From IMG/VR virus record IMGVR_UViG_3300042562_001046, positions 2,776 through 66,775 of that record: 64,000 nt of DNA. One strand, written 5' to 3'. Each line of letters opens with the position of its first letter. The stretch's first letter is position 1. Below are positions 35,085-61,349 of the stretch, piece after piece. Under the pieces are notes generated by a model. That model saw nothing but the letters and a program-made list of their open reading frames with translations. It was not told where the DNA came from and made no database searches. Both the position numbers and the translations under genes were made by a program. The DNA is from a virus.

Positions 35085-35242
35085 AGGCAATTACGGAATT
35101 TCACTTAAAAGCCCAAACCCCTTACTGTAAAAGACTATCTCTCTCAATACTACACTTCCCTTTTTTAAATCTTAATTTAGTAAGTGTAAGTGTAATATAT
35201 AGAGGGGTTTACCAATGAAAAGGGGTCTAACGCTATTACACC
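35085..35242 (+). repeat. Inverted repeat, left copy (IR-L); AT-rich, candidate replication origin
   Basis: Reverse complement of 61192-61349. By hand alignment there are 14 mismatches in 158 bp and no gaps; 35139-35231 is identical. Confidence 0.95.
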
Positions 35243-35308
35243 TGTGAGCGCCCCGTTTTGGGGGTCTATGATGACTTTTCGACCAAAACGATCTGAAGAG
35301 GTAAAAAC

Positions 35309-37711
35309 GTGAAACTGACCTTCCTAAATGCCCCGGTGCCGTTAACTAAGTCTTACACCAAACTGACAGATGGCACGATCGAAAAAAGTTCGTACCCCAA
35401 TGTTTGGGAGGTGACATCGATCATCGAAGACTGCCGTGACCTCAAGCACTTCGAGACCCTGATCAACAAACACGCAGCCCTCGGCAACTGCCTGCTCAAA
35501 GGCATGGTGCTGCGTGATCTGTTCTGTGAATCCCGCAAAGACTCCACCGACCGCAACGGCACCACGGAATGGCTGTGCCTGGACATTGACGGGATCGAGC
35601 CTCAGTTCAGCACCACAGTGCAGCGCTTTGACAAGACATCGCGAGCCTTCGTCGATGTGCCCGTCGTGCTCCCAGTCACTGTTGACTATCTCCTGCAAGA
35701 GATGGGCCTCGGCGAGGTGTCCTACATCTTGCAGTGGTCAGGCTCTATGAACATCACTGGCCCTGCCCTGCGCTGCCACGTGTTCATCATGCTAAGCAAA
35801 CCTGTCTCCGCACCACTTGTCAAACAGTGGCTGATTCAGAAGAACCATGAGGTTGACATTTTTCAGCAGCACCAACAACTCACCAAGACCGGCAACTCCC
35901 TCACCTGGGGGCTTGACATCACCGCCTGCCAGTCCGACAAGCTGATCTACATCGCCCCGCCAGTCCTCAAGGGCATCAAAAACCCACTGGGTCGTCTACC
36001 CCGTGTCAGCCTGGTCACTCGCCCCCAAGCCACCTTCGACCTGGTGGATCAGATCAACACCACCGAACAGAACCGCGTGCTCACCGACACCCGTGTGCTC
36101 GAGCTGCGCGACATTGCAGGCCTACCCAAGCGCAAGCTGACCTACAAGACCGTGGGTGCTCACCAGGTGCTGGCCAAGCCCGACGAGTGCATCGCCACTG
36201 AGATCAAACAAGACCGGGGCTTCGTCTACTTCAACCTCAACGGTGGTGACTCCTGGGCCTACTACCACCCAGAAAACAACCCTGACTACATCTTCAACTT
36301 CAAAGGTGAGCCGGTGTATCTCACCAAGGAGCTGCTGCCCACGTACTGGGAGTCGTTGAAGTCACAAGCCTACCGCACCAGCTCAACAGGGCTGACCTAC
36401 CTGGCCTTCCTGGACCGTCAAACCAGCGTCTACTGGCGCGGCACCTACGACGCAGCCACTGACGACCTGAACATCAACCAGGCCAAGACCGAGACCATGG
36501 TCCGCCAGTTCGCAGACTCCAACGGCCTGCGGCTGGGCGACAACATCCCTGAGTGGGACATGACCTTCAACCCCCATGACAACGTGCGGGTCGACTTCGC
36601 CAACAACACGGTCAACACCTTTGAGCTAACTGAGTACATGCGCACGCCAGTGAGACGTGTCTCCAAGTGCCCTCCCGTCACCTTCAAGATCATCAGCCAC
36701 GTCCTTGGAGACGATGTTGACGCCGTCGAGCACTTCATGAACTGGATCAGCTTCATCGCTCAGGAGCGCGACCGCACCATGACCGCGTGGATCTGGCAGG
36801 GCACCCAGGGCACCGGCAAGGGCCTGCTGATGAACAAGATCCTGGCCCCTCTGTTCGGCACCCGACAGACCGCCATCAAACGCGCCAGTGAATTGTCAGA
36901 AAAGTGGACCGACTTCGTTGCCAACAAGTTCCTCGTCTTTATCGACGAGGTTCAGACATCTGCGTTCCGCGACGAGGCCAACGTGATCAGCAACCTGAAG
37001 AACCTGATCACAGAACCGACCGCCCAGATCCGCATGATGAACCGCAACACCTACGACGTGCCGAACCACTCGAACTGGATCTTCGCCTCCAACAAACCCG
37101 ACCCTGTCTCGGTAGACAAGGAAGACCGGCGCTTCAACGTCGGTCCCTACCAGGCCAAGAAGCTGCAGATCACTCAGAAGGAGCTGGACCAGATCGACAA
37201 GGAGCTGCAGGAGTTCCACCACTACCTGATGAGCTACGCCGTCGACAAGATCCAGGCCAGCACGGTGCTGCAGAGCTCAGCCCGCACTACCCTGATTGAG
37301 CTGTCCCAGACCACCTCAGAATCCACTGCCAGCGCCCTGAACGAAGGCAACATGCAGTTCTTCCTCGACCAGCTGCCCACCAGTGACCTGTACAAAACCG
37401 ACCATCTCAGTCTCAACCGCGTCGAGACCTACCGGCGAACTTTGTTCGACATCATCCAGCGCACGCGCAGCGACGGCAACTGCAACATCCGTCGTGATGA
37501 GCTGTTCGTGATCTTCGACTACACCGTTGGCGGCATGAACCCAAGTCCAACGACGTTCACCCGCTTCCTAGGACATCGCCAGATCACCGTGAAGCCGGTG
37601 AGCATCCAGGGCAAGACTGACAGAGGCACGACGACGACCTGGCAGGACGTGGCCAGCTTCCCGGCCTACCTGAAGGCAACCTTCGCCGAAATTAAAATAA
37701 AAACAGCTTGA
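35309..37711 (+). CDS. Primase-SF3 helicase (DUF5906/D5-like)
   Basis: N-terminal LDID and H motifs; C-terminal GTQGTGKG Walker A, FIDE Walker B, FASN and DRRF. Confidence 0.9.
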   Translation: MKLTFLNAPVPLTKSYTKLTDGTIEKSSYPNVWEVTSIIEDCRDLKHFETLINKHAALGNCLLKGMVLRDLFCESRKDSTDRNGTTEWLCLDIDGIEPQFSTTVQRFDKTSRAFVDVPVVLPVTVDYLLQEMGLGEVSYILQWSGSMNITGPALRCHVFIMLSKPVSAPLVKQWLIQKNHEVDIFQQHQQLTKTGNSLTWGLDITACQSDKLIYIAPPVLKGIKNPLGRLPRVSLVTRPQATFDLVDQINTTEQNRVLTDTRVLELRDIAGLPKRKLTYKTVGAHQVLAKPDECIATEIKQDRGFVYFNLNGGDSWAYYHPENNPDYIFNFKGEPVYLTKELLPTYWESLKSQAYRTSSTGLTYLAFLDRQTSVYWRGTYDAATDDLNINQAKTETMVRQFADSNGLRLGDNIPEWDMTFNPHDNVRVDFANNTVNTFELTEYMRTPVRRVSKCPPVTFKIISHVLGDDVDAVEHFMNWISFIAQERDRTMTAWIWQGTQGTGKGLLMNKILAPLFGTRQTAIKRASELSEKWTDFVANKFLVFIDEVQTSAFRDEANVISNLKNLITEPTAQIRMMNRNTYDVPNHSNWIFASNKPDPVSVDKEDRRFNVGPYQAKKLQITQKELDQIDKELQEFHHYLMSYAVDKIQASTVLQSSARTTLIELSQTTSESTASALNEGNMQFFLDQLPTSDLYKTDHLSLNRVETYRRTLFDIIQRTRSDGNCNIRRDELFVIFDYTVGGMNPSPTTFTRFLGHRQITVKPVSIQGKTDRGTTTTWQDVASFPAYLKATFAEIKIKTA

Positions 37712-37728
37712 CCTTTTTTTATCTTCAT

Positions 37729-37759
37729 ATCTAAAATCTAATCCATGTCGAACTTAGAT
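37729..37759 (+). promoter_or_regulatory. Cluster of motif half-sites (ATCTAAA ATCTAAT ... GTCGAACTTAGAT)
   Basis: Spans the ATG at 37745. Confidence 0.5.
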
Positions 37760-38020
37760 AACCCAGTCGCCACCACCTCCATCCGCTTCCACGGAGCGGA
37801 TGTGCGCAACCTGGTGAGGTCAAGCCCCGCGATGACACAGGCCATCCGGGACATGTCGCTCGGCATGCTGGACGCAACAATCAACGTCTACACACAGCCC
37901 CGCATAGCAGACACTGAGCCAATGGAGTGGTCGATGACCATCTCCTCGCCCGTCGGGCGCCGCAGCCTCGCGCTGATCCAACGCAAGCCCAACAGCGCAG
38001 TGCTGATCACCGGCGAATAA
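37745..38020 (+). CDS. Hypothetical protein
   Basis: ORF following the primase gene. Confidence 0.55.
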   Translation: MSNLDNPVATTSIRFHGADVRNLVRSSPAMTQAIRDMSLGMLDATINVYTQPRIADTEPMEWSMTISSPVGRRSLALIQRKPNSAVLITGE

Positions 38021-38102
38021 GCCCCCGCTCCCCTCCCTAGCTACGCAGCGCCCGAAGACCGGGTGAAGCGCAGCTCGCCCTGAAATCTAAGAAAGGCCTT
38101 CG

Positions 38103-38258
38103 ATGAACGTCACTTATCTAACACGCGCTCGCCGGCACTTCAACTGCGCCGACCAGAAAACCAACCGCCACAACCAGCGGGCCTGGATCCGCTCGATCCG
38201 GTTTCTGGGCGCGAACTGGCTGCTGGCTCAACCCGTCACACGGACAACCACCCAATGA
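38103..38258 (+). CDS. Small phage protein, 51 aa (not in ORF track)
   Basis: MNVTYLTRARRHF...RHNQRAWIRSIRFLGANWLLA; AAAGG RBS. Confidence 0.6.
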   Translation: MNVTYLTRARRHFNCADQKTNRHNQRAWIRSIRFLGANWLLAQPVTRTTTQ

Positions 38259-38521
38259 AGATTGAAGTCGAAGTCTCTGAAGCAGAGCTGAAGGATGCTC
38301 TGGCCCACCACGTGCGCACAGCTGTCGCTGACCGCATCCACGCCTGGGGCCAGCAGAACCTACTTAAAGAAGCCGTGGCCGCGAAGTACCGCGAACTCGT
38401 CTCTGAGCTGGTCGAAGAAGAGCTGCGGAAAGCTCCACAGATCCGCGAGCAGATCCAGCAGGCCCTGATCAACAAGATCCGCGGGCAGCTCACCACGGCG
38501 ATGAACAAGAAGACACCATGA
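38255..38521 (+). CDS. Hypothetical protein
   Basis: Translationally coupled by ATGA overlap. Confidence 0.6.
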   Translation: MKIEVEVSEAELKDALAHHVRTAVADRIHAWGQQNLLKEAVAAKYRELVSELVEEELRKAPQIREQIQQALINKIRGQLTTAMNKKTP

Positions 38522-38572
38522 CCACACCACGATCTCGCTTGCTGCTTTTTGTTTTCTGCTGGGGTACTTGAC

Positions 38573-38755
38573 ATGAAAACACCCCTGCCTACATGTTACG
38601 GACTGGTTGGCTACACCGAAGCTCAAATGCTTGAGTACGGCAAAGCAGAGTTTGAACGGGCGCTGCTACTGGCAATGAACGCAACTAAAGCATTTGGTAA
38701 GACTGGCGATGTGATTGCGGTAGTGATCGGACACATAAAGAGGGATGAAACATGA
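38573..38755 (+). CDS. Hypothetical protein
   Basis: GYTEAQMLEYG motif; coupled to the next gene. Confidence 0.5.
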   Translation: MKTPLPTCYGLVGYTEAQMLEYGKAEFERALLLAMNATKAFGKTGDVIAVVIGHIKRDET

Positions 38756-38949
38756 CCAAAGACGACATCATCAAGCTGGCAAAGAAGGTCGGACTGTGTA
38801 CAGACAAAGAACTGCAACCAGAACTTATTGTATTTTCTTACCTTGTTGCCGAGCATGAGCGTGAGGAATGCGCAAAGTTGTGTGAGCAATGGAATGCAAG
38901 CCACCCTGACGTACTTGCCACCGCCATCAAAGCAAGAGGAAATACATGA
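38752..38949 (+). CDS. Small phage protein (MTKDDII...EREECAKLCE...AIKARG family)
   Basis: Recognisable short family motif; ATGA overlaps. Confidence 0.65.
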   Translation: MTKDDIIKLAKKVGLCTDKELQPELIVFSYLVAEHEREECAKLCEQWNASHPDVLATAIKARGNT

Positions 38950-39413
38950 CTAAAGACGACATCATCCGTATGGCGCGGGAGGCTGGGTTTGCCGATGGCG
39001 TGGCAGAAATTGTCGGGCTTGAAGGCTTTGCTAACTTCTTTGCAGATAACAAAAAAGCCCTTGAAGCCGCACTGGAGCAGCAGCAAGCCGCGCAAACGGT
39101 ACTCGACCTCGTTACCGACCATGGCGTGCATGGGATGGACCGCGCCCTTACAGCGCTCCGCACTGCGCTGGAGCAGGCACCTAACCGCCAAGCATTACAA
39201 GCCGCAGGCACCCACTCCGCGCCTTGCGCCCGGCACTGCGAAGCCAAGGCGTACGAGATCGAGATTCGTTTGCTGAATTCAGCACTGCGCGAAGCCCAGG
39301 AACAGCGCAAGCTGCTGACGGACGATCAACTTGATGAAATTGCTGTGATTGCAAGAGGGGGCAATTTGCATGACCTTCGTATTGCCATCGAAGCCGCCCA
39401 CAACATTAAGTAA
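38946..39413 (+). CDS. Mosaic phage protein (MTKDDIIRMAREAG...AIEAAHNIK)
   Basis: N-terminus repeats that of the previous gene. Confidence 0.65.
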   Translation: MTKDDIIRMAREAGFADGVAEIVGLEGFANFFADNKKALEAALEQQQAAQTVLDLVTDHGVHGMDRALTALRTALEQAPNRQALQAAGTHSAPCARHCEAKAYEIEIRLLNSALREAQEQRKLLTDDQLDEIAVIARGGNLHDLRIAIEAAHNIK

Positions 39414-39419
39414 AACCCC

Positions 39420-39689
39420 ATGACCAAACTCACCGCCCCCGAGCGCAACACTCTGCCCTCCCACGTGATCGCCAGACCCAAAGACGCCGTGTCGCAGTCA
39501 ATCCGCAAGAGCATCGGTGCAGCCGTCTACGAGCCCCGTGCCAGGGACCCCAACGAAGCCACCCCGCCAGAACAGAACATCTGGGAACGGCCCGTCTACG
39601 TGCCTGGAGATGGGGACCACACCGCCCAGGTGCCCCGTGCTGGCTCCCAGAACGCCCGTAACCTGCGCAGCCTGGGGTTTGGGACATGA
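39420..39689 (+). CDS. Hypothetical protein
   Basis: C-terminal RAGSQ.A..L.SLG motif. Confidence 0.55.
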   Translation: MTKLTAPERNTLPSHVIARPKDAVSQSIRKSIGAAVYEPRARDPNEATPPEQNIWERPVYVPGDGDHTAQVPRAGSQNARNLRSLGFGT

Positions 39690-39946
39690 GCCGCAGCAGC
39701 GTACGCCGGCTCAAAGCCCGCGCCTACACCCTGCGCAACACCCAGACGTGGGACACGTCCATGAACAAGATGCACTTCATCCGGCACATCAAGCCGTGCA
39801 GCAGCTACGTGCCCTGGTGCTCCGACTGCAACGGCAACTTGTTCCGCGCCCTGCTAGGGCGGTTCCCGTACTCAGTTGCTGAGTTTGACGATTTCCAAGA
39901 CGTCCAGCAAGCCAACGCAACCCCGTACTACCAGGAGACAGCATGA
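39686..39946 (+). CDS. Hypothetical protein with Cys/His cluster
   Basis: H..PC....CSDC. Confidence 0.55.
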   Translation: MSRSSVRRLKARAYTLRNTQTWDTSMNKMHFIRHIKPCSSYVPWCSDCNGNLFRALLGRFPYSVAEFDDFQDVQQANATPYYQETA

Positions 39947-40452
39947 ACTCAACTACCGAGCCCATCACAGAAGTCACTCCCGCAGTCATTCAGAAAACGC
40001 CGAATGCCCACGTCCACGAGCAGGTCTGGGAGGCCATCAAAGCCTGCCCAACTCCTCGCGCCTCGGCGCAGATTGCCTCCTACACAAAGCTGTCGCAGTC
40101 GCTCGTTTCGAACTCAATCACCTACCTGCGCTCGCGGTACCTGCTTGACGTCACAAAACGAAACCGGTTTAGCGCAGATTACAGAAGCGGCCAACGACTG
40201 GTCTCCCACTTCTATGTCCCGGACATATACAAAGCCGTCCCATGGGACCAGCTTCCGCACACGCCCTCGAACGCGAACCCCAATCGAACTTCTCTGAACC
40301 TCGCTGCAGTACCAAAGCCACAAGAACTGCAGGTGCTGGTGCAAGTACCGACGCCAACGCGAGCGCCAAGCATCTGGAACGACTGGATCGAGCAGCAGTC
40401 GCTGCGGGACCTGCGCGAGCTGCACGCCATCTTGAACCGGTTGTTCCCATGA
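39943..40452 (+). CDS. Putative winged-helix DNA-binding protein
   Basis: QVWEAIK...SAQIA..T.LSQS.VSNSI..L....L is an HTH-like pattern. Confidence 0.55.
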   Translation: MNSTTEPITEVTPAVIQKTPNAHVHEQVWEAIKACPTPRASAQIASYTKLSQSLVSNSITYLRSRYLLDVTKRNRFSADYRSGQRLVSHFYVPDIYKAVPWDQLPHTPSNANPNRTSLNLAAVPKPQELQVLVQVPTPTRAPSIWNDWIEQQSLRDLRELHAILNRLFP

Positions 40453-40925
40453 GCAACAACCTCACTGACCAAGACTACGTTCTGACTGAAGGCGCTGCCT
40501 GGTTGAATGTAGGCCTGTTCGCCATACGGATCCACACCACTGACGAAGGCGTCACCGTTGATATCTTTGATGCTGCGCTGGCCAAATCCGACGGCAATTG
40601 TGATGCAGGGCTCCTCAACACCACCTACGTTTACAACAGTGACATAGCAGAGATTGCGCCGACCAACACATGCTCCCACTGCGGCCGCACGTTAGATGAC
40701 GACCAGACGCAGGGCGTGTGCAGCTCAGACGACTGCCCGCGGCTCGAGCTGCTCAGCACCGCCGAAGAAGACATTCTGAGCAGCCTGCGCGATCGGGGAT
40801 GCGCAGTGTGCGTGTTCCAGCCGCACGAGATCGGCGACGCCGACCTCGAAAAAATAGAAGAGCGCATGTGCGTCGCGGGATGGGACGAGATCAGCACCAA
40901 CGGAAACGTGGGGTTAACTGGATGA
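40449..40925 (+). CDS. Hypothetical protein with Zn-ribbon segment
   Basis: Start at MSNNLTD; CSHC...CSSDDC. Confidence 0.55.
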   Translation: MSNNLTDQDYVLTEGAAWLNVGLFAIRIHTTDEGVTVDIFDAALAKSDGNCDAGLLNTTYVYNSDIAEIAPTNTCSHCGRTLDDDQTQGVCSSDDCPRLELLSTAEEDILSSLRDRGCAVCVFQPHEIGDADLEKIEERMCVAGWDEISTNGNVGLTG

Positions 40926-40943
40926 AAAACACAAGGACGCAGC

Positions 40944-41189
40944 ATGAACTTCGACCATTACACCGTCATTGTGGGCCGGCCTGACTACGTGTCAGACAAC
41001 CCTGTAGACGACACCTACATGACGAGCGTCTACGCGCAGACTGCCAAGGCAGCAGGGCTTGAAGCCATCAGGGAGTGCGCGGAAACCGATTCGGCAGCAC
41101 AAGAAGACGTGAACGACGTAGGCGACTACACCATCGTTGCCGTGATCGCTGGGAAGCACCAGGACATACAAGGAAGAACTGACTTATGA
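40944..41189 (+). CDS. Hypothetical protein
   Basis: Acidic 81-aa ORF, coupled to the next gene. Confidence 0.55.
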   Translation: MNFDHYTVIVGRPDYVSDNPVDDTYMTSVYAQTAKAAGLEAIRECAETDSAAQEDVNDVGDYTIVAVIAGKHQDIQGRTDL

Positions 41190-41539
41190 AAACAGCAGAA
41201 CTGATAGGCGATGCCCTTGATCGGGCAGTGGCGAAGTGTATGGGTGTCACGGCAATGGAGTGGAGCGATAACCACGGCGGGTATGAGACATACAGCCCGT
41301 CCACTGACTGGGCCTTTGGAGGACCAATCATTGAGCAGATGGGGATCAGTGTATGGGAAGCATGCAATGAGGCAGACCCACAAGAGTGGATGGCAATTAC
41401 CAGTAGAAGCACGTGGGGCGAAGACGGCGAACGCGATGCATCATACGGCCCCACCCCGCTCGTCGCAGCGATGAGGTGCTACGTTGCCTCTCGGCTCGGC
41501 GACGAAATCGAGGTCCCCAGTGAACTTCACCCGGCTTGA
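41186..41539 (+). CDS. NinX/DUF2591 family protein
   Basis: L.G.ALD.AVA...YSPSTDW..GGPIIE...GPTPLVAAMRCYVAS.LG.E.EVP. Confidence 0.8.
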   Translation: MKTAELIGDALDRAVAKCMGVTAMEWSDNHGGYETYSPSTDWAFGGPIIEQMGISVWEACNEADPQEWMAITSRSTWGEDGERDASYGPTPLVAAMRCYVASRLGDEIEVPSELHPA

Positions 41540-41612
41540 GTTCGCCGAGCGCCTGGTGTTTCTGCTGGCGCTGATCGCGGTCGCCCTAGACCTCCTGTAC
41601 TGGAGGCCCTGA
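41520..41612 (+). CDS. 30-aa membrane peptide ending DLLYWRP (not in ORF track)
   Basis: VNFTRLEFAERLVFLLALIAVALDLLYWRP*; single TM helix. Confidence 0.5.
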   Translation: MNFTRLEFAERLVFLLALIAVALDLLYWRP

Positions 41613-41932: not shown

Positions 41933-42073
41933 CAACAACTGCACGCAAGCCTGTGTGTGCGATACCAACGTGGACGACCTGTACCCGCTCTACAGCTGGG
42001 TCGACTATTCCATCGTGGTGGTGATGATCGTCAGCTCGACAGCTGCGTTGGGATTCTTCGTTGGGTATGTAAC

Positions 42074-47976: not shown

Positions 47977-47977
47977 C

Positions 47978-47997
47978 ATCTAAGATCTAACTTAGAA
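47978..47997 (+). promoter_or_regulatory. 20-bp dispersed motif copy (ATCTAAGATCTAACTTAGAA)
   Basis: Perfect consensus match, 13 nt before the nuclease ATG. Confidence 0.8.
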
Positions 47998-52540: not shown

Positions 52541-52554
52541 TTCTGTAACGAATC

Positions 52555-52574
52555 ATCTTAGATCTAAGTTAGAA
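52555..52574 (+). promoter_or_regulatory. 20-bp dispersed motif copy (ATCTTAGATCTAAGTTAGAA)
   Basis: Intergenic, one mismatch to consensus. Confidence 0.8.
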
Positions 52575-52596: not shown

Positions 52597-53049
52597 ATGT
52601 CCGCAGTCATCGAAAAACCCAACCGCACGCGCATCGCCAAACCGGCCGCCGAACCCACCATGACCCTCGGTCAAGCAACCGACAAGATGTGGCAGCTGCG
52701 CGAAGAAAAGCGCGTGCTTGAAGCCCAGGTCAAAGCGCTTGAGCTGCAGATCAAAGGCGACGAAGACAAGAAAATCATCGGCCTGGAGGGCATCATCTTT
52801 GGCCTACTTGACGCCCAGGACACCCGCAAAGCCGAAGGCAAAAAGGCCTCCGTGTCCATCGGTGAGTCCGTGGTCGGCAACGTCGTCGACTGGGAAGCAT
52901 TCTGGGCCTGGATCGCCAAGACCAAGAACTTCCACCTCATCCAGAAACGCACCAGCGACCCCGGCTTGCGAGAGCTGTGGGCCCTGAAGAAAGCAACCCC
53001 CGGCTGTCAGCCCTTCACCAAAAGAACCCTTTCCGTTCGCTCCCTGTAA
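52597..53049 (+). CDS. Coiled-coil phage replication-associated protein
   Basis: V.DW..F..WI....F...QKR...PG pattern; precedes the SSB gene. Confidence 0.65.
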   Translation: MSAVIEKPNRTRIAKPAAEPTMTLGQATDKMWQLREEKRVLEAQVKALELQIKGDEDKKIIGLEGIIFGLLDAQDTRKAEGKKASVSIGESVVGNVVDWEAFWAWIAKTKNFHLIQKRTSDPGLRELWALKKATPGCQPFTKRTLSVRSL

Positions 53050-53068
53050 TCTAACGTCTAAGAAAGAC
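53049..53068 (+). promoter_or_regulatory. 20-bp dispersed motif copy (ATCTAACGTCTAAGAAAGAC)
   Basis: Fills the intergenic gap before the SSB ATG. Confidence 0.6.
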
Positions 53069-53075
53069 ATCACAA

Positions 53076-53846: not shown

Positions 53847-53896
53847 GGGTTTACCCTCTCCCACAAATGGGGGAAGGGAAACCGATACATCAATTT

Positions 53897-53916
53897 TTCT
53901 AATTTAGATCAAAGAT
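53897..53916 (-). promoter_or_regulatory. 20-bp dispersed motif copy opposite to local transcription (ATCTTTGATCTAAATTAGAA)
   Basis: 7 nt upstream of the ATG at 53924. Confidence 0.6.
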
Positions 53917-53923
53917 ACGACTT

Positions 53924-54181
53924 ATGTCAGTTCTAATGTCAATACGCAAGTGGTACATCAATCAGGCCCTGGAGTCATTCAGTCGTCTGAATGAAGTTCT
54001 CAGCGAATTGACATTGGCAGAGGTACTGGCTTGTCTCGATCTCGAGACAGCCACACGACGTCGCCGGTCCGTCTCCGACCGGTTGATCTCTCGAGCAGTT
54101 CGGCTCAACGAGATCGCCTTCAACCAAAGCCTACAGGAGAAATACCATGGCACGCGCACCCAAGTCCCTGACCCCCGCTGA
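53924..54181 (+). CDS. Small helical hypothetical protein
   Basis: LT..EV...L..E....RR.S motif. Confidence 0.6.
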   Translation: MSVLMSIRKWYINQALESFSRLNEVLSELTLAEVLACLDLETATRRRRSVSDRLISRAVRLNEIAFNQSLQEKYHGTRTQVPDPR

Positions 54182-54524: not shown

Positions 54525-54581
54525 ACCATCCGGCCGCTAGTACGCTGCTGGCGGCCGGCACCAACCCCCCCGAAAGATTTA

Positions 54582-55139
54582 ATGAAGCACATCATGATCG
54601 ACGCCGAGACTCTCGGTACCGTGTCCGACGCCTGTATTCTCAGCATCGGAGCTGTTCGGTTTGACCTTGACTCGGAGAGTATTGATGATGACGGCTTTTA
54701 CGCCAGCATCTCGATCGACTCCAACCTTGAGCTCAAGCGCCGGATCCAAGAGGAGACTCTAATTTGGTGGCTGAAGCAAGGAGCGGACGCTCAGGGCGTG
54801 TTTCATGAGTCCAAGCAAACCCTGCGGGCGGCACTGACTGACCTGGCTGACTGGATCGGCGCTGACGACTGCCAGGTCTGGAGCAACGGGGCCGATTTCG
54901 ACCTGCCCATGATCGCTCATGCCTTCGCGTCACTGGGGATGGAGATTCCTTGGCAATACTGGAACAGCAACTGCTTCAGGACTTACAAGAAACTGCCCGG
55001 CGCCAAGCTGATCAGGCTGCCCTTTACGGGCACGAAGCACAACGCCCTGTTTGACGCTGTCCACCAGGCGCGTACGGCACAAGCCATTCAGAAGGCGCTG
55101 TTCTCCAACAACCATGTCATGAAGGTAAAAGCGGCATGA
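54582..55139 (+). CDS. DEDDh 3'-5' exonuclease (exoribonuclease-like)
   Basis: MIDAETLG, W.NG..FD and HNAL.DA. Confidence 0.88.
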   Translation: MKHIMIDAETLGTVSDACILSIGAVRFDLDSESIDDDGFYASISIDSNLELKRRIQEETLIWWLKQGADAQGVFHESKQTLRAALTDLADWIGADDCQVWSNGADFDLPMIAHAFASLGMEIPWQYWNSNCFRTYKKLPGAKLIRLPFTGTKHNALFDAVHQARTAQAIQKALFSNNHVMKVKAA

Positions 55140-55552
55140 GTGAACTTGACCCACACGGACGTGACCCGCACGCACCTGGGGCCAAGCTCGACGCCGGCAA
55201 AGTCCAACCCTGGCTGTGCCTGAGCGGGTTCTCCAACGCCCTGATGGCCGTGGCTGATGTCACGACCAAAGGGGCGCTGAAGTACACCCCCAACGGCTGG
55301 ACCAAGGTGCCGGAAGGCGAAGCGCGGTACATGGAGGCGTTCGCACGCCACATGCTCCTGCTCGGGTCTGGCGAGAAAATAGACAAGGACACCTCGTGCC
55401 TGCACAAAGCACAGATGGTCTGGAATCTGCTCGCCTCCCTCGAACTTGAGATGCGCACCGCCAAGGACTGGGACCGCAAGGTCGCAAGCTGGGACCCAGA
55501 CGACGCCTCAGAAGTCTGGACAAACCGAGTGAGTGTCTCAGCCAGCTCATGA
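55136..55552 (+). CDS. dATP/dGTP diphosphohydrolase domain protein (DUF5664-like)
   Basis: GAKLDAGK...VA.V.T.GA.KY..NGW...RH...D.DT..LH.A...WN. Confidence 0.85.
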   Translation: MSELDPHGRDPHAPGAKLDAGKVQPWLCLSGFSNALMAVADVTTKGALKYTPNGWTKVPEGEARYMEAFARHMLLLGSGEKIDKDTSCLHKAQMVWNLLASLELEMRTAKDWDRKVASWDPDDASEVWTNRVSVSASS

Positions 55553-55950
55553 GCACCCCGGAGAACACGTTTATCGCCTCTGTGCACAGGCATCTGCCGC
55601 CTGAGCTGTACCGGATGAAGAACCACAACCAGTACAACTCAGGCATCCCAGATGTCTGGTACAGCGGCTATAAAGCGGACCTCTGGATTGAGTACAAGTT
55701 CATCGTGTTGCCCAAACGCGCTGACACAATGATCGTGCCCAACCTCTCCAACCTTCAACATGAGTGGCTATTACAGCGACACATGGAAGGCCGGAGAGTG
55801 GGCGTTATAGTTGGGTGTAAAGAGGGAGGTGTGTGGATAAAAAATACAGATTGGGGCCGCCCGTGCTCCTGTGAAGATTTCCATCAAAAAATACTGACTC
55901 GAGCAGTTATTGCCGACCTAATCAAAGATGAAGTCGGCCGGTGTTTCTAG
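55549..55950 (+). CDS. VRR-NUC/Holliday-junction resolvase-like nuclease
   Basis: E..F...GIPD...WIEYK...LS.LQ..W. Confidence 0.8.
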   Translation: MSTPENTFIASVHRHLPPELYRMKNHNQYNSGIPDVWYSGYKADLWIEYKFIVLPKRADTMIVPNLSNLQHEWLLQRHMEGRRVGVIVGCKEGGVWIKNTDWGRPCSCEDFHQKILTRAVIADLIKDEVGRCF

Positions 55951-56001
55951 GTCTCCTCCGTCTCGATCCTCCAGATCTATTCAACTTCCTTCTAACCCAA
56001 A

Positions 56002-56385
56002 ATGAGAAACAACGAAACCGGACTCTTTCCGGCACTTGAAAAAATCCTACGAGCTTCCTCCGTTCCTTTGGACTGTCAAACAATGTTTGACATGCCCGAG
56101 GTAAAACAACACGCGGCGTCTGTGAACCGCGTCTCTGACTACCTTGGCGGCCTCTGGCGCAAAGGTGTTGTCGTACGTCTAGCCGCCCCCAAAGTTGAGG
56201 GCACTCGCGCTCGGTGGATGTATGAATGGAAGGGCAACCGAGGCCCCAAGCTCCACGATGCTATCGAGTACACCCCGCGTGTGCTGGCCGATCGCCCCTC
56301 TGTCCTGATCACTGAGGAGGGCAACGTCATCACCATTGAGATGCCTCACCTCGTGATTTCCATACGGCAGAAGCCGGGCAATTAG
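56002..56385 (+). CDS. Putative winged-helix DNA-binding protein
   Basis: VS.YL..L.RKG.V.R...RW.Y recognition-helix plus wing pattern. Confidence 0.55.
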   Translation: MRNNETGLFPALEKILRASSVPLDCQTMFDMPEVKQHAASVNRVSDYLGGLWRKGVVVRLAAPKVEGTRARWMYEWKGNRGPKLHDAIEYTPRVLADRPSVLITEEGNVITIEMPHLVISIRQKPGN

Positions 56386-56387
56386 TC

Positions 56388-56410
56388 AGAGGGGCATGAG
56401 CCCCCTTTAC
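56388..56410 (+). terminator. Short intrinsic terminator-like hairpin
   Basis: AGAGGGGC-ATGA-GCCCCCTTT. Confidence 0.45.
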
Positions 56411-56421
56411 TCGGGCCTAAC

Positions 56422-56441
56422 ATCTAATATCTATGTTCGAT
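56422..56441 (+). promoter_or_regulatory. 20-bp dispersed motif copy (ATCTAATATCTATGTTCGAT)
   Basis: Overlaps the ATG at 56433; an extra half-site lies at 56415. Confidence 0.65.
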
Positions 56442-56666
56442 CTATTGACGAAAGAAGAAGACGTCCAAGCCTCGAACATGGGATGGGCGCTGCAATACGT
56501 CTACGACCTGGACACCGCCCGGTGGCGTGTTCAGGTTCTCACCACCAACCCTGTCCACCCTAACGCGGAAGCGGCCGGCGCGCACGTCGTCGGCCAGGCC
56601 CGCGCTGGTCAGCCCCTCGCAACCAAAGCCATCCGCCTTGTGATGGCCAGCAACCAACGCACATGA
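56433..56666 (+). CDS. Hypothetical protein
   Basis: Coupled to the ligase gene. Confidence 0.55.
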   Translation: MFDLLTKEEDVQASNMGWALQYVYDLDTARWRVQVLTTNPVHPNAEAAGAHVVGQARAGQPLATKAIRLVMASNQRT

Positions 56667-57619
56667 ACCTCAAACCCCTGCTTGCAGAAGACGCCAACCT
56701 TGCCAACGTCAAATTCCCGTGCTGGGCTCAGCCGAAGATCGACGGCGTCCGCGCCCTCAACCTAAACGGCACGCTCACCGGGCGCAGCCTGGACCCCTTC
56801 GAGGGGTTCGGCATCACCGAGCACTTCAGCCAACCCGAATTCATCGGCCTGGACGGGGAAATGACCCTAGGCAACGACCCCAGCTGCGGCGAGCGCCTGT
56901 GCAGCTTGACCACTGGCGCCATGGGCCGTTTCAAAGGCGTGACTGAGATGGCCGACCTGCACTGGTGGGTGTTTGACCTGATCACGCCTGACACCATCGA
57001 CCTGGTGTATGCGGACCGATACCGGCTGCTGCATCAAACCGTGCGGGACCTTCAGTACGGCAACCGCAGGATCGACATCGTGCCCTACGTCGGCTGCAAC
57101 AACCTGGCGCAGCTGCAGCACGCCGTGGCAGGGTTCTTTGAAGACGGCTACGAGGGCACCATCATCCGCAATCCCCAGGCCCTGTACAAACAGGGGCGAG
57201 CCACCAAGAAGAACCAGGAGCTGTGGCGTGTCAAGCCCTGGGCCGACGCCGAGATCCGCGTCACAGGCATTACCGAAGGGCAGATGAACGCCAACGAGGC
57301 CAAGACCAACACGCTGGGGCGCACTGAGCGCAGCAGCGCCAAGGCCGGCATGGTCCCCAACGGCCAGGTCGGCTCCGTCCAAGGCACCCTGCTTGCGGAC
57401 TTCCACGACCCGATCACCGGCCGGCTGCTGTTCGGCAAAGGCCTGCCCGTGACCGTTGGCAGTGGCGAGATGTCCGTGGTCGAGGCCACGCGCTACTTCC
57501 GCGAGCCTAACCTGATCGTGGGCCACGTGGTCAAGTTCAAGCACATGACCCACGGCGTCAAAGACCTGCCCCGCTTTCCGACCTACATGACGCACCGGCT
57601 GGCGCAGGACATGTCGTGA
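56663..57619 (+). CDS. lig: ATP-dependent DNA ligase
   Basis: KIDGVR, LDGE, VFD, GYEG.IIR, and C-terminal PRFP. Confidence 0.92.
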   Translation: MNLKPLLAEDANLANVKFPCWAQPKIDGVRALNLNGTLTGRSLDPFEGFGITEHFSQPEFIGLDGEMTLGNDPSCGERLCSLTTGAMGRFKGVTEMADLHWWVFDLITPDTIDLVYADRYRLLHQTVRDLQYGNRRIDIVPYVGCNNLAQLQHAVAGFFEDGYEGTIIRNPQALYKQGRATKKNQELWRVKPWADAEIRVTGITEGQMNANEAKTNTLGRTERSSAKAGMVPNGQVGSVQGTLLADFHDPITGRLLFGKGLPVTVGSGEMSVVEATRYFREPNLIVGHVVKFKHMTHGVKDLPRFPTYMTHRLAQDMS

Positions 57620-57819
57620 ACCACAAGCTGACCTATGACGGCGCGGCCCTGGTCGCACCCGGCAACAAGTGGATCCCGATCGGCCAGGACACGCCGCGGG
57701 GCGTGAAGCTGCTACTCATCTCTAGAAAATACCGTTCGGCGGCGCTGGGCATGTACCTGCCAGACGACAAGTTCTACACCCACTACTACCCCCTGCCGAC
57801 GTTCGACGATCCGGTATGA
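57616..57819 (+). CDS. DUF551-like small protein
   Basis: WIPI..TP.G.K.LL...THY.PLP. Confidence 0.6.
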   Translation: MNHKLTYDGAALVAPGNKWIPIGQDTPRGVKLLLISRKYRSAALGMYLPDDKFYTHYYPLPTFDDPV

Positions 57820-58151
57820 CCACTGAGCCGCTGCGCATCCTGAACCTGCAGGAGGCAGCGGCGTTGCTGCGCGTGCACAAATCCACCTTGTCCGGCCAGG
57901 CAGCAGCGGGGCTGGTCCCCGCTGGCAAGATTGGTCGAGCCTGGACGTTCATCGAGTCTGACCTCGTCGCACACCTACGAAACCAATACCTATGTCCCTC
58001 TACAAACAGCCCAGCAGTGAAATCTGGTGGGCCTACCTCACGCACCAGGGGGAGCGGCACCGCTTCTCGACTGGAGAAACTGATCGCGCTGCGGCGAAAC
58101 GAGTTCACGACGAGCGCAAAGCCGCGCTCTGGAAAGAAACCCCTGCCCTAA
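57816..58151 (+). CDS. xis: Excisionase-like HTH_17 protein
   Basis: L.L.EAA.LL.VH..T....A..G.VPA.KIGR.W.F; directly upstream of and overlapping int. Confidence 0.8.
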   Translation: MTTEPLRILNLQEAAALLRVHKSTLSGQAAAGLVPAGKIGRAWTFIESDLVAHLRNQYLCPSTNSPAVKSGGPTSRTRGSGTASRLEKLIALRRNEFTTSAKPRSGKKPLP

Positions 58152-59014
58152 AAGGCAAGACCTGGAACAACGCCATCGAGAAATGGCTGGACGCTGCCCC
58201 GCGCTCATATTCCGAGCTGCTGGGCATCAAGAAGTTCAACCTGTACTTTCCCGACCGGCGGCTCAACAGCATCACGCCAGAGCTGGTTAACGAGGCCCTG
58301 TCGAAGTATTGCAAGACCGGGGCCACCTACACGCGGCATCGGGCGCGTGTCGCTGGGATCCTGAACATGAACGGGGTGATCCTCAAACTCGACACCCGCA
58401 AGGTCAAGAAGAAGGCCCGTACCTGGCTGACCCACGAGCAGTGGGCGGCTCTGTACGCAGAACTACCGCCGCACATGCAGCCAATGGCAGAGTTTGCGGT
58501 GGAGACCGGTCTGCGCCAGTCCAACGTGCTGAAGCTGGCATGGGACCGCGTTGACGTCAAACGCCGCCTGGTATGGATCGAAGCTGAGGACATGAAGGGC
58601 GGCACCGCCATCGGGATCCCCCTATCAACTGGAGCACTGCGTGTCCTACAAGCCCAAACCGGGAAGCACCCTGAGTTCGTCTTTACGTACCAGAAGCGCC
58701 CCATCAAAGAAATCAAGACCGCCTTCATCGCCGCCTGTGTCCGAGCAGGAGTTGGTCGCATGGTGGACGGAGCGTATCGTGGGTTCACCTGGCACGGCTT
58801 TCGCCACACCTGGGCCACCTGGCACGTCCAGAACGGCACCCCACTCGACGTCCTTCAGAAGCTAGGCGCCTGGAAAGACCACCGGATGGTGCTGAATTAC
58901 GCCCACCACTCGCCTGGGCACTTGGCGAGTTTTGCTGACAACGCGAAGGAAAAATCATGCCTGACGCCGACGACTACTTCTGCATCGGTACCGACGGACG
59001 CCTCTGGATCCTAG
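57992..59014 (+). CDS. int: Tyrosine integrase
   Basis: TGLR, K(GG), HGFRHT, LGAW and NYAH catalytic residues; N-terminal arm-binding domain. Confidence 0.95.
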   Translation: MSLYKQPSSEIWWAYLTHQGERHRFSTGETDRAAAKRVHDERKAALWKETPALKGKTWNNAIEKWLDAAPRSYSELLGIKKFNLYFPDRRLNSITPELVNEALSKYCKTGATYTRHRARVAGILNMNGVILKLDTRKVKKKARTWLTHEQWAALYAELPPHMQPMAEFAVETGLRQSNVLKLAWDRVDVKRRLVWIEAEDMKGGTAIGIPLSTGALRVLQAQTGKHPEFVFTYQKRPIKEIKTAFIAACVRAGVGRMVDGAYRGFTWHGFRHTWATWHVQNGTPLDVLQKLGAWKDHRMVLNYAHHSPGHLASFADNAKEKSCLTPTTTSASVPTDASGS

Positions 59015-59172
59015 GTAACCACGGGGGTTTTGAGGCTGCCGAGGACACCGCCCGCTCGCTGGACGTGGAGCCGGTCTGGATCTTCGGCCGCGAAACGGCG
59101 ATCGCTTGGCGCGACAGCCTGAACCAAGCGCTGCCCAAACACAGCGCTTCACTCTCGATCGCCTACTCATGA
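58957..59172 (+). CDS. Hypothetical protein
   Basis: AAGGA RBS; overlaps the 3' end of int. Confidence 0.55.
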   Translation: MPDADDYFCIGTDGRLWILGNHGGFEAAEDTARSLDVEPVWIFGRETAIAWRDSLNQALPKHSASLSIAYS

Positions 59173-59411
59173 CACATACCTTCCGCGCTAACCTTAAACA
59201 AGCAGCTCGTAACAACGAGACCGTCACCATCGGCGGTGGGGAATTTGGCCCAGCAGAGCTGCATCAAGCAGCTCGCGCTTTAGAGCAAGGCGAGAAAGCA
59301 ATCAACCTCTTGCACGCCATTGTCGATCTCAACAGCACTACCAACGGCATGTTTAAAAGCATGCTGGAAGCCCGTACGTGGCTGCGCGAGATTGAAAGCA
59401 AGCCTACATGA
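59169..59411 (+). CDS. Hypothetical protein
   Basis: ATGA overlaps; TVTIGGGEF motif. Confidence 0.55.
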   Translation: MTHTFRANLKQAARNNETVTIGGGEFGPAELHQAARALEQGEKAINLLHAIVDLNSTTNGMFKSMLEARTWLREIESKPT

Positions 59412-59785
59412 GCCGCCAAGCCCGTGATGATGGCACCAGCACCGCGCTGGCCGTCGCTGGCGAGGCCTGGTGCGGCCTGGCCGAATACTTCATCTACCGG
59501 TACTTTGTGCTGCAGGGCAGCCAAGGCGCTCGCTTTGAGGAGGCCCGGGCGTTTGCGGAGCTGTGCTTTTCGGCTAAGCCCCCACACCCCAACGCCTGGG
59601 GCTCCCTGGCGCTGCGTATGGCCAGCTCTGGCCTGATTGAGCGCACTGGCGATCACCGCCAAAGCACCCTGTTCCGCAACCACGCTCGATCGGCTGCGGT
59701 GTGGCGTGTGCGGCACCACACCTCTGTTTTGGCCCACCCAAACCCGCTGTTGTCCGCTGCTTGGAGGAGGAAAACCATGGCCTAA
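59408..59785 (+). CDS. Conserved phage hypothetical protein
   Basis: P.HPNAWG.L......G.I......S....H......W. Confidence 0.65.
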   Translation: MSRQARDDGTSTALAVAGEAWCGLAEYFIYRYFVLQGSQGARFEEARAFAELCFSAKPPHPNAWGSLALRMASSGLIERTGDHRQSTLFRNHARSAAVWRVRHHTSVLAHPNPLLSAAWRRKTMA

Positions 59786-59806
59786 AACCTACTCTAAGAT
59801 CTTCTT

Positions 59807-60055
59807 GTATGGCGTAAAAGTATGGCATAGCACCCCGTTCTAACGTCTTCTAACGCCTCTCTAATCACGATCAAAGATGACTAGATCAAAAAAAATTCCT
59901 TATAAGTCATTGATTTATAAGGAATTTCTTGGTGGGCGGTGGAGGCTTCGAACCTCCGACCCCAGCAGTGTGAAGGTCACCGCCGCGCCCCGCCAGGCCT
60001 TTATCCACGCCATTCTGCCCGAAAGTATGGCGGTTTCGGTATGGCCTAGGCCATA
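59807..60055. other. attP region: paired GTATGGC arm-type repeats, AT hairpin and tRNA core
   Basis: GTATGGC occurs twice at 59807-59826 and twice at 60025-60045. Hairpin AAATTCCTTATAAGTCA-T-TGATTTATAAGGAATTT at 59893-59927. Confidence 0.75.
59930..59974 (-). other. attP core = 3' half of tRNA-Val(CAC)
   Basis: Minus strand reads TTCACAC-TGCTG-GGGTC-GGAGG-TTCGAAG-CCTCC-ACCGCCC-ACCA (anticodon loop, T-arm, acceptor 3' strand, CCA). The 5' half is absent. Confidence 0.88.
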
Positions 60056-60101
60056 ATTTTAAGAGCTAAGACAAGTCAACTTCATAACCCATAGGAATAT
60101 C

Positions 60102-60296
60102 ATGGTCATTTACAAAACTTTCACCACCTCCGCCGAAGGCGTCCAAACCATCAACTGGCAGGCATCCCAAACCGAGGCCAGCAAGGCCCGTGGTGCGGCC
60201 AAGAAGCTAGGCTCCAAGGCCGAATCCCAGACCGTCAACATCCCCACAGCCAAGAGCCAACTGATCGGCTGGCTGAACGAGAACGCTGTGTGTTAA
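60102..60296 (+). CDS. Hypothetical protein
   Basis: AGGA RBS; IPT.K..LI.WLN motif. Confidence 0.6.
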   Translation: MVIYKTFTTSAEGVQTINWQASQTEASKARGAAKKLGSKAESQTVNIPTAKSQLIGWLNENAVC

Positions 60297-60327
60297 TGTG
60301 ACCTCCACAACAACACAGGGAGAACTC

Positions 60328-60582
60328 ATGGATACATTTCAAGACCACAACGGATTTGGGAAAATCTTCGCCGTCGGGATCGTGATACTTTTTATCGCGA
60401 TGGCCCGAGGCCTCATCAAGTCGCAGTCAGAAATTGCCCGTCGCACAAGGATTGTCATCGCGGTGCTGATCGGGCTCTCCGGCGCATCAGCTGTGGTGGC
60501 GGGATCTGGCCCAATCGGCTTGGTAATCCTCCTCGCCATACTTGGCGCCGGCTACTGGATCTTCAAAGGTCGAGGCAAATAA
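60328..60582 (+). CDS. Small 3-TM membrane protein
   Basis: Three hydrophobic segments; GGAG RBS. Confidence 0.65.
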   Translation: MDTFQDHNGFGKIFAVGIVILFIAMARGLIKSQSEIARRTRIVIAVLIGLSGASAVVAGSGPIGLVILLAILGAGYWIFKGRGK

Positions 60583-60585
60583 TCC

Positions 60586-60861
60586 ATGCAGTCCAACTTC
60601 CTGCTCGGCAACCTCAGCATCACAGAAGACGCAAAGTATTGCCTACAGCGCATCCCGTACGACCTGATTGCTCGTCATGCAGTCAACGAACACGGCTCGC
60701 TCTCCAAACGGGAAGCCCGCCGCAATGAGGTGGCCATGAAGACGATCGGTGAAATCACATCCCGCTACGCAGTCGACCCGACCAACCCCAAAGCCGGGAA
60801 TGTTCTGGTCGTCACCAGCTGCGCCTGGAACGAAACCCTTGTCAAACTAGAAAGCGAATAA
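60586..60861 (+). CDS. Plasmid/phage-related small protein
   Basis: F.LG...IT......L..RH...G...N...I.SRY pattern. Confidence 0.6.
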   Translation: MQSNFLLGNLSITEDAKYCLQRIPYDLIARHAVNEHGSLSKREARRNEVAMKTIGEITSRYAVDPTNPKAGNVLVVTSCAWNETLVKLESE

Positions 60862-60980
60862 TGTCCTTCTTCTTCCTCCTCTCCCGAATCATCCGCATCG
60901 CGTACGTCACACTGCGTGCTGCTGCCGGATTCCTCATCGTCAGCCACGGCATTGTCCGTTGGGTCAACAACCACCGGTAA
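60861..60980 (+). CDS. 39-aa hydrophobic peptide (not in ORF track)
   Basis: TAATG coupling; MSFFFLLSRIIRIAYVTLRAAAGFLIVSHGIVRWVNNHR*. Confidence 0.4.
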   Translation: MSFFFLLSRIIRIAYVTLRAAAGFLIVSHGIVRWVNNHR

Positions 60981-60983
60981 AAG

Positions 60984-61021
60984 ACAAGGCGGGTCAGCCC
61001 AGAGCTGGTCCGCTTTTGTTC
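60984..61021 (+). terminator. Intrinsic terminator ending the plus arm
   Basis: AGGCGGGTCAGC-ccaga-GCTGGTCCGCTT followed by TTGTT. Confidence 0.6.
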
Positions 61022-61191
61022 ACGTATTTACCGCCCCTTTTTGCCCCACTCATCTCTCTTCCCGCCGGCACTGCCCGGCTCTTTTTTATTTCCCGAAGGG
61101 TATGGGGCGCGGGGTGGAGAAAGGCTGAAAACCTGCTTCAAACCCTGCGGGGCAGAGACGGCGTAGGCGGCGGCTTTTTCGGCCCAACACT

Positions 61192-61349
61192 GGTGTAATA
61201 GTGTTAGACCCCTTTTCATTGGTAAACCCCTCTATATATTACACTTACACTTACTAAATTAAGATTTAAAAAAGGGAAGTGTAGTATTGAGAGAGGACTC
61301 CTTTTATAGTAGGGGTTTCAGCCTTGTAAGTGAAATCCCGTAATTGCCT
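61192..61349 (-). repeat. Inverted repeat, right copy (IR-R)
   Basis: Reverse complement of 35085-35242; 61203-61295 is identical to 35139-35231. Abuts the stop codon of the giant gene. Confidence 0.95.

Follow-up and report, generated by a model that had tools for sequence, protein, structure and literature searches.

We found that the genome of a virus related to the Pseudomonas phage KPP25 carries two short AT-rich islands which, judged by comparative sequence analysis, would be two binding loci of one replication initiator, that is, origin-type sites; we give this reading a probability of about one half. The genome, labelled G000 below, is the 66,775-bp viral record IMGVR_UViG_3300042562_001046, whose ends overlap by 127 nt, and the window analysed here is the stretch of 64,000 nt at positions 2776-66775 of that record; coordinates are those of the window unless another sequence is named. 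The two islands are paired and conserved among related phages, vary in their orientation relative to each other and evolve in concert, and one of them usually adjoins a gene for a primase-polymerase (PrimPol) joined to a superfamily 3 (SF3) helicase.

A sequence-only reading of the window had described an origin-like inverted repeat bracketing a 26-kb replication and integration module, and the geometry that it gave is confirmed by our re-check: 35085-35242 and 61192-61349 are ungapped reverse complements of 158 nt with 14 mismatches, and their longest identical run is a 93-nt core (Table 1). A repeat search lengthens the arms to 162 nt, with 91% complementarity and 147 of 162 positions identical. 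When the record was compared with itself by blastn the pair was recovered at E = 8.6e-60, and no other long inverted repeat was found in the record. Both arms are AT-rich as described, with a GC content of 0.35 and 0.36 against 0.61 for the genome. Between the left copy, island 1, and the GTG codon that opens an 800-aa open reading frame (ORF) at 35309 lie 66 nt (62 nt for the extended arm), and the right copy, island 2, overlaps by a single base the stop codon of the minus-strand ORF 61349-63979. Both copies are non-coding: an ATG at 35215 opens a small ORF of 10 codons in the left copy and of 63 codons in the right one, and the small ORFs opening inside the repeat are not conserved in relatives. 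We found no tRNA in the window, nor any Rfam family at gathering score.

The pair is not an artefact of assembly. In the Logan contigs of run X1, a separate assembly possibly derived from the source sample, the 93-nt core forms a contig of its own with a depth of 48.1, and four different arms join it at depths of 20.8, 23.3, 25.7 and 26.2. The core therefore has the depth expected of two copies, each with its own two arms, and both copies are real. Both outer arms are also present in the Logan contigs of run X3.

Four more small AT-rich patches are present in the window, at 31861-31970, 37666-37770, 53881-53965 and 59841-59940, with a lowest 80-nt GC of 0.25-0.31. They lack GTGTAA iterons. One of them lies in the divergent promoter region and another between the integrase gene and island 2, possibly near attP.

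Each island consists of short iterons arranged around an AT tract. The motifs pointed out from the sequence alone are in place, with GTAAGTGTAAGTGTAAT at 35180, TACACTT at 35151, AAGTGTA at 35182 and 35188, GTGTAATA at 35190 and TATTACAC at 35234. Each G000 copy carries three central head-to-tail units, two opposed units (TACACTT and TATTACAC) and two weaker ones, and of the 11 occurrences of GTGTAA on both strands of the genome 6 are inside the two copies. The islands of the relatives are built alike, measuring about 150-200 bp, with iterons of 6-8 nt, two to four of them central and two to three on each flank, and an AT- or pyrimidine-rich tract of 25-50 nt. Read toward the primase gene, the shared order is two to three reverse iterons, a CTATATAG/TATAAA-type box, the pyrimidine-rich AT tract, two to four forward head-to-tail iterons, a short module, and reverse iterons again, so that every island carries iterons on both strands; this order of flank, AT tract and central array is alike in the islands of nine genomes compared and of KPP25. 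The iteron itself differs by lineage (GTGTAA here, and TGGAAG, TATAAG, TAGAAG, GAGATG, ATTACAAA, CTAGCAA or GTTACGA elsewhere), and its sequence is identical between the two islands of one genome. Just 3' of the central iterons, 12 of the 36 upstream regions hold an exact match to the consensus of integration host factor (IHF), where shuffled sequences would give 0.6.

The islands can be followed through the relatives of this phage. We retrieved 35 related viral loci by their primase protein and counted as an AT island any region with a lowest 100-nt GC at or below 0.32. Such an island lies within 400 nt upstream of the primase gene in 32 of the 35 loci, the exceptions being L026, L032 and L035; the same phage is sampled twice in L017/L037, L020/L033, L027/L034 and L025/L028. 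The presence of a second island could be assessed in 15 genomes, namely G000, ten complete or near-complete viral contigs (G001-G010), the 50-kb partial contig G014, the cultured Pseudomonas phage KPP25 (NC_024123.1), the 65.7-kb circular contig G018 from a binned genome (colinear with G000, with a primase 67% identical to its own), and G017, a prophage in a contig of a metagenome-assembled genome (L103-L107). The pair is present in 14 of these 15 genomes; across their 60-70 kb, most of the genomes show two strong AT islands and no more. Outside this count stand G011, G012 and G013, contigs that stop short of where island 2 would be expected, together with G015 and G016; in G016, a Variovorax brevis prophage with a different structural arm, island 1 is present and a second island was not identified.

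The positions of the islands are conserved as well. Island 1 lies directly 5' of the primase gene except in KPP25 and G010. In G000, G001-G007, G009 and KPP25 the stop codon of the giant virion-protein gene is directly followed by island 2. In G018 about 100 nt separate the two, and in G017 and G010, where a small plus-strand gene (G017) or a 600-aa minus-strand gene (G010) intervenes, the distance is 0.5-1.9 kb. The spacing of the islands is 25-34 kb in free phage genomes (by arithmetic some 39-51% of the circle) and 40 kb in the prophage. This synteny extends to relatives whose primase is 42-44% identical, and a 32-nt pattern taken from the core gave 0 exact matches in other viral contigs. 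The comparison across genomes thus presents the pair as what appears to be a conserved, lineage-specific cis element of the 60-70-kb phages related to KPP25.

Several of these relatives deserve mention in their own right. The KPP25 islands at 26390-26840 and 58250-58440 (L077, L078) are direct repeats with 80.5% identity over 159 nt and GTTACGA-type iterons; KPP25 has extra direct repeats beside island 1 (26622-26754 against 26710-26833) in a 677-nt intergenic gap, and the first 426 nt of its record are repeated at its end. The contig of G001 (L038) begins inside its own island 2 (positions 1-80), which resembles an assembly break induced by a repeat, and island 1 of G001 has a run of 13 C where relatives carry the AT tract (L040, near 44870). 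The G017 prophage spans about 70 kb and is flanked by 48-nt identical direct repeats (146-193 and 70425-70472 of the sequence fetched), and of its two ends one has the integrase gene at a distance of about 0.8 kb and the other has island 2 at about 1.1 kb. In IMG/VR, G013 is listed as a provirus, and G016 comes from a contig of a Variovorax brevis isolate. Because of G017, the Variovorax brevis prophage and the provirus class of G013, we conclude that the phage group is at least partly temperate, with Burkholderiales-type hosts.

The inverted arrangement from which the pair was first recognised is not conserved. Ten of the 14 two-island genomes carry the islands as direct repeats (G001-G007, G009, G014 and KPP25) and four as inverted repeats (G000, G018, G017 and G010). 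G001, one of the two closest complete relatives of G000, is among the direct ones; G003 and G004 are close relatives and are not counted as independent cases, and in G002 and G006 the orientation was assigned from the order of the motifs, the local alignment scores of the two orientations being tied or weak (29 vs 29 and 45 vs 39). Gene order is the same throughout: G000, G018 and G017 are colinear, and in none of them is the module flipped. The inverted orientation in G000 is one of two tolerated states. Such freedom of orientation is as expected for a protein-binding or origin site, not for a promoter.

That the two copies are being homogenised, as the identical core had suggested, is borne out by comparison among genomes. 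The two islands are 92% identical within G000, 84% within G018 and 74% within G017, whereas pairs of islands taken between these three genomes are only 63-73% identical, align with lower scores and show no preference for the orthologous island. The AT tract inside the 93-nt core is poorly conserved even in the nearest relatives, and the identity of the core would for this reason reflect recent exchange and not constraint. These comparisons indicate that the two islands undergo concerted evolution.

The gene adjoining island 1 is a natural candidate for a protein acting on the islands. Its helicase part matches Pfam DUF5906 (E 7.9e-20), and the only sequence match that phmmer returned from the PDB is the C-terminal region of the NrS-1 enzyme (6k9c, E 5.9e-31, residues 435-688). 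The first 440 residues were not recognised by sequence methods. An alignment-based model of the N-terminal part (predicted local distance difference test score, pLDDT, 88.3) aligns over residues 1-255 to archaeo-eukaryotic primase (AEP) polymerases: by their titles 12 of the 14 matches with Z above 5 are primase-polymerases, at middling Z scores of 6.7-5.1, and they include RepB' of RSF1010 (Z 5.5 and 5.1), with other PrimPols scoring higher. Residues D92, D94 and H157 are invariant in the primase alignment and fit the AEP catalytic motifs. Because of the homology of its helicase to NrS-1, its AEP-like N-terminal model and these invariant residues, we assign the protein as a PrimPol with an SF3 helicase.

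Conservation along this protein is fairly even, with only residues 101-125 and the last 25 aa hypervariable. Its C-terminal 130 aa had no Pfam match at E <= 1; by Atlas features, residues 685-800 match clusters carrying DUF3874 (score 0.93) and Pox_D5 (score 0.90, a family found on 16% of the members), which we treat as a lead only. In two relatives, L029:2986-6207 and L031:3001-6198 (G006), the primase-helicases are longer, with 1,073 and 1,065 aa; near residue 505 their helicase domain carries some 270 extra residues, which split the match into 1-505 and 500-781 and could be an intein or a homing insertion.

The lineage-specific iterons shared by the two islands, the likeness of the islands within a genome, their free orientation and their usual PrimPol-SF3 neighbour together argue for two binding loci of one replication protein. 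We propose that one sequence-specific DNA-binding protein, most likely the adjacent PrimPol-SF3 helicase or else another partner, recognises the iterons at both loci. Island 1 would then be a replication origin, at which the helicase would load itself across the easily melted AT tract and prime synthesis. Island 2, where the late operon ends, would give this protein its second locus and might serve as a second origin, as an enhancer in cis comparable to crr of phage P4, or as a roadblock at which a stalled fork triggers the switch from theta to concatemeric replication, as proposed for oriR of phage SPP1. If homologous recombination inverted the segment now and then, this would be a side effect of such a pair and not its function. 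The label "origin-like" given to the repeat at the outset therefore stays plausible, with iterons pointing both ways around an AT tract, the PrimPol-SF3 neighbour and the conserved pair on its side; what finds no support is the importance attached to the inverted orientation.

Several observations weigh against the proposal of two initiator-binding origin sites. G008, which CheckV rates as complete, has a single island, and the second copy is dispensable there. Island 1 lies 12 kb upstream of the primase gene in KPP25 and 4.5 kb upstream in G010. The GC skew of G000 switches at the divergence of transcription near 32 kb and not at island 1; the switch follows transcription. The iterons here are contiguous 6-8-mers, not long spaced units, whereas those of classical plasmid origins measure 17-22 bp and are spaced. 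The G000 copies lack the IHF-like site and have a different short module in its place. No region of the primase tracks the iteron type beyond phylogeny in a mutual-information test (4 types, 22 sequences in 11 clade units, 400 shuffles of the clade units), the best region reaching z = 1.36 and the C-terminal 50 aa z = 1.33, a value attained in 8.5% of the shuffles; 11 further aligned sequences, with other or mixed iteron types or duplicating an included phage, were set aside. A raw enrichment for iteron type in residues 751-800 was discarded as not significant against the same shuffles. The 302-aa protein encoded just before island 1 offers no better match, since similarity within its family does not follow iteron type either: the closest relative of the G000 protein is that of L008, which has GGAAG iterons.

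Two-site and iteron-based origins are known from other systems, and the islands resemble several of them in part. The origins of Staphylococcus aureus pathogenicity islands (SaPIs) have six to twelve iterons of 5-6 nt, an AT-rich centre with at least two opposed iterons on each side, and a self-loading helicase as the initiator (PMC9371898). G000 shares the short iterons, the AT-rich region between opposed iterons and the adjacency of the site to the presumed initiator gene (62 nt), and in both systems the iterons are specific to the element; in SaPI5 the initiator-helicase is moreover fused to a primase, as is the PrimPol-helicase here (same source, and bioRxiv 10.64898/2026.10.17.759575). 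The proteins differ, SaPI Rep being described there as an MCM-like AAA+ protein that ends in a winged helix and the enzyme here being SF3/D5-like. Homology of the G000 protein to SaPI Rep did not emerge from our searches, which gave NrS-1 alone by phmmer against the PDB and DUF5906 in Pfam, and no DNA-binding domain was identified in the G000 helicase by the Pfam and PDB searches. The SaPI origin, as that account presents it, is also single and downstream of rep, whereas here the site lies upstream and has two copies 25-34 kb apart. The G000 system may thus work like the SaPI origins without being a member of their family.

For the two-site arrangement there is a precedent in SPP1, whose oriL and oriR are similarly organised and both bound by gp38; stalling of forks at oriR is proposed to trigger concatemeric replication (PMC6316719; PMC3485210). 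Both systems have two distant sites with repeats and an AT-rich unwinding element, one site being at the initiator gene and one in the late region, and two distant loci of the same organisation are what we see in 14 of 15 genomes. SPP1 differs in that gp38 works with a DnaB-type helicase, a loader and the host primase and in that oriL lies inside gene 38, and the portions of PMC6316719 and PMC3485210 at hand do not describe variable orientation or concerted evolution. The polymerase of NrS-1, whose helicase domain is homologous to ours and whose N-terminal part shares the AEP fold, needs for priming a specific 8-nt template sequence that occurs twice in the genome, once per strand, and is proposed as the origin (PMC7102993). 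The NrS-1 sites are lone 8-mers close to the middle of the genome; here iteron islands of 160 bp stand half a genome apart.

Among phages, the islands can also be set beside the ori and crr sites of P4. In that phage ori and crr are reportedly both bound by the alpha primase-helicase, and crr is said to work in either orientation. The likeness lies in an initiator combining a primase with an SF3-type helicase and in iterons at two separate cis sites; the P4 sites are only a few kb apart, and crr is not itself an origin. The crr site and the P4 origin of replication are mentioned in PMC9942202.

It is possible, though we think it rather unlikely, that the islands are operator or promoter modules for a phage transcription factor, with island 1 as the regulated promoter of the replication (middle) operon and island 2 acting, where the late operon ends, as an insulator or an antisense promoter. 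Island 1 does stand between the replication genes and a hairpin that closes off the first few early genes, and the CTATATAG/TATAAA-type box is conserved upstream of the AT tract in all islands. The core contains a sigma-70-like site (9/12), but this site is directed away from the primase gene, and our scan of the copies found none pointing toward it; this sole site in each copy was not used as evidence for an origin or for a promoter. The promoter-like hexamers are, by eye and without a count, not conserved across relatives, in most genomes island 2 lacks a gene that it could drive and would make antisense RNA if it fired in either direction, and the orientation relative to local genes varies as described above. 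Still, a promoter or operator role could apply because the sigma-70-like consensus may not be that of the host, and regulation may coexist with an origin, since in iteron plasmids the autoregulated rep promoters are usually overlapped by inverted iterons. For the selfish or incidental repeats of another class, namely a miniature inverted-repeat transposable element (MITE) or the chance duplication of a pac or partition site, the short, AT-rich, non-coding character, the two copies and the flippable orientation would be suitable; yet there are only two copies per genome and these are syntenic across relatives, the arm ends show by eye no terminal inverted repeats or target-site duplication, the core is without exact matches in other viral contigs, and a packaging site would be single and directional. 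We consider a repeat of this sort extremely improbable.

The sequence-only reading had offered three models of its own, all built on the inverted arrangement. The strict form of the first, in which the islands are two strand-specific priming sites like ssiA and ssiB of RSF1010 for strand-displacement replication by the PrimPol, can draw on the AEP fold with RepB' among its structural matches, on the single recognition site per strand of NrS-1 (PMC7102993) and on the four genomes with inverted islands. There is no such division into one site per strand here: in the 10 of 14 genomes with direct repeats, one strand would be primed at both islands, and every island already has iterons on both strands. 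The model thus fails in the direct-repeat genomes unless each island serves both strands, and in its strict form we judge it quite unlikely. The other two, a programmed inversion of the 26-kb module giving two isomers and a 2-micron-type switch to rolling-circle replication, strike us as very improbable; as conserved functions they are ruled out, since both need inverted repeats. They have in their favour that the copies exchange sequence, as the identical core and the concerted evolution show, and that a tyrosine recombinase is encoded within the segment, so that the inverted pair of G000 recalls FLP/FRT of the 2-micron plasmid. In run X2 a 760-nt contig (window 61188-61653) even runs from the left inner flank through the core into the right outer flank, a junction that the inverted isomer would give; it has a depth of 3.4, is equally expected under either isomer and is without linkage information because contigs of 31-mers break at the 93-nt core with 30-nt overlaps, as the contigs of all 4 public runs do. 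The inverted state is that of a minority and the close relative G001 is direct, so that an inverted orientation conserved as in an invertible segment is not seen; the same recombination, acting on direct repeats, would remove the replication module; the colinearity of G000, G018 and G017 leaves no flipped module; integrase homologues were found in only four relatives (G005, G008, G017 and G018) against islands in 14 of 15 genomes; and G017 is integrated in the manner of an ordinary prophage, with 48-bp att repeats. The 127-nt overlap that closes the circle, being longer than the core, suggests one dominant isomer. Rare inversion in G000 by homologous recombination across the core is possible.

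A further scenario is that the islands are hot spots of intragenomic recombination with consequences for the genome, which has in our view little chance of being right. In the genomes with inverted repeats (G000, G018, G017 and G010) crossovers would flip the 26-kb replication and integration module and give two isomers, and in the direct-repeat relatives, KPP25 included, they would split the genome into two circles with one hybrid island each. If the islands were origins as well, both circles could replicate, and the phage would in effect have a facultatively bipartite genome, or else a plasmid-like replication module able to excise.

Should the islands indeed be initiator-binding origins, they would be the first concrete origin candidates for phages of the KPP25/Kochitakasuvirus type, which are used against Pseudomonas aeruginosa and have a wide set of uncultured freshwater relatives. 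NrS-1-like PrimPol-SF3 helicases would also be linked to an iteron origin of the SaPI Rep kind; papilloma E1 and SV40 T-antigen have an iteron origin of the same kind. As KPP25 is in culture, direct tests could tell whether its second copy acts as a second origin, as a crr-like enhancer or as a fork barrier like oriR of SPP1. The pair is in addition a clean natural case of concerted evolution between two cis sites that flip freely in orientation, and it explains contig breaks or possible mis-joins in assemblies of this group, such as the start of the G001 contig in island 2. The architecture had been put forward as undescribed. In the searchable literature on KPP25-like phages, PMC13340246 and PMC12870095 among it, we found no description of the islands, and an earlier description elsewhere is possible; as a general statement the claim is too strong in view of oriL and oriR of SPP1 and ori and crr of P4. 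Phage genomes with two origin-like iteron sites are already known, and so are iteron origins at which the helicase is the initiator. What appears to be new is a homogenised, orientation-free pair about half a genome apart and tied to a PrimPol-SF3 helicase, in a phage group with cultured members of relevance to therapy.

Table 1. Positions in the window of the two islands, their parts and the neighbouring features
Feature	Position	Strand	Remarks
Island 1 (left arm)	35085..35246	+	AT-rich iteron element, 62 nt 5' of the PrimPol-helicase gene
Island 2 (right arm)	61188..61349	-	Reverse-complemented copy, between the plus-arm terminator and the giant virion-protein stop codon
Identical core	35139..35231 (right copy 61203-61295)	+	Pyrimidine-rich AT tract, central iterons, ATATAGAGGGG...AAAAGGGG module
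Central head-to-tail iterons	35180..35196 (right copy 61238-61254, minus strand)	+	GTAAGT/GTAAGT/GTAAT
Left-flank iteron	35151..35157	-	TACACTT, opposite orientation
Weaker left-flank iterons	35102, 35121		CACTTA (35102), CTTAC (35121)
Right-flank iteron	35234..35241	-	TATTACAC, opposite orientation
AT tract	35158-35179		Between TACACTT (35151) and the central array (35180)
PrimPol (AEP) + SF3/D5-type helicase	35309..37711	+	800 aa, candidate initiator
302-aa all-helical protein	34105..35013	+	Syntenic, ends just before island 1
Tyrosine integrase	57992..59014	+	Inside the bracketed segment, not consistently present in island-bearing relatives
Intrinsic-terminator-like hairpin and T-run	61064..61089	+	Closes the plus-strand arm, ~100 nt before island 2
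Giant virion-protein gene, 3' part	61349..64000	-	Crosses the contig ends, ~2,590 aa by arithmetic

The plus-strand arm bracketed by the islands carries genes for the primase-helicase, a MoxR-type ATPase, a DUF2201/VWA protein, an SNF2 helicase, a family-A DNA polymerase, an ATP-dependent ligase and the tyrosine integrase, which looks like a lysogeny integrase. The flanking minus-strand arm consists of structural genes. It includes the giant virion-protein gene, whose homologues in relatives encode 1,764-2,651 aa. We considered whether this protein is a virion RNA polymerase and dropped the idea, as it had no Pfam match above the curated cut-off and no sequence match in the PDB.

On the other side of island 1 lies the gene for the 302-aa protein, a homologue of which (280-460 aa) is encoded directly before island 1 in about 30 relatives. 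Its model is all-helical with a pLDDT of 84.6. It had no Foldseek match at E <= 0.001 and no match in Pfam, PHROG or the PDB, and nothing in the Atlas scored above 0.78. The family diverges much faster than the primase, with identities of 20-40% vs about 50%, and its relationships are discordant with the primase tree. Because of this fast divergence and discordance, the protein comparisons suggest a mosaic breakpoint at the island.

A motif of about 20 nt, ATCTAAnATCTAAGTTAGA, recurs genome-wide on the coding strand, often from a few to 25 nt before start codons. It is found at 4907-4926, 13468-13487, 23848-23867, 29835-29854, 47977-47996, 52554-52573, 53048-53067 and 56421-56440, among others, with two copies within genes. 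The inverted repeat is not a clear member of this set, as with up to 5 substitutions allowed only its own seed was matched.

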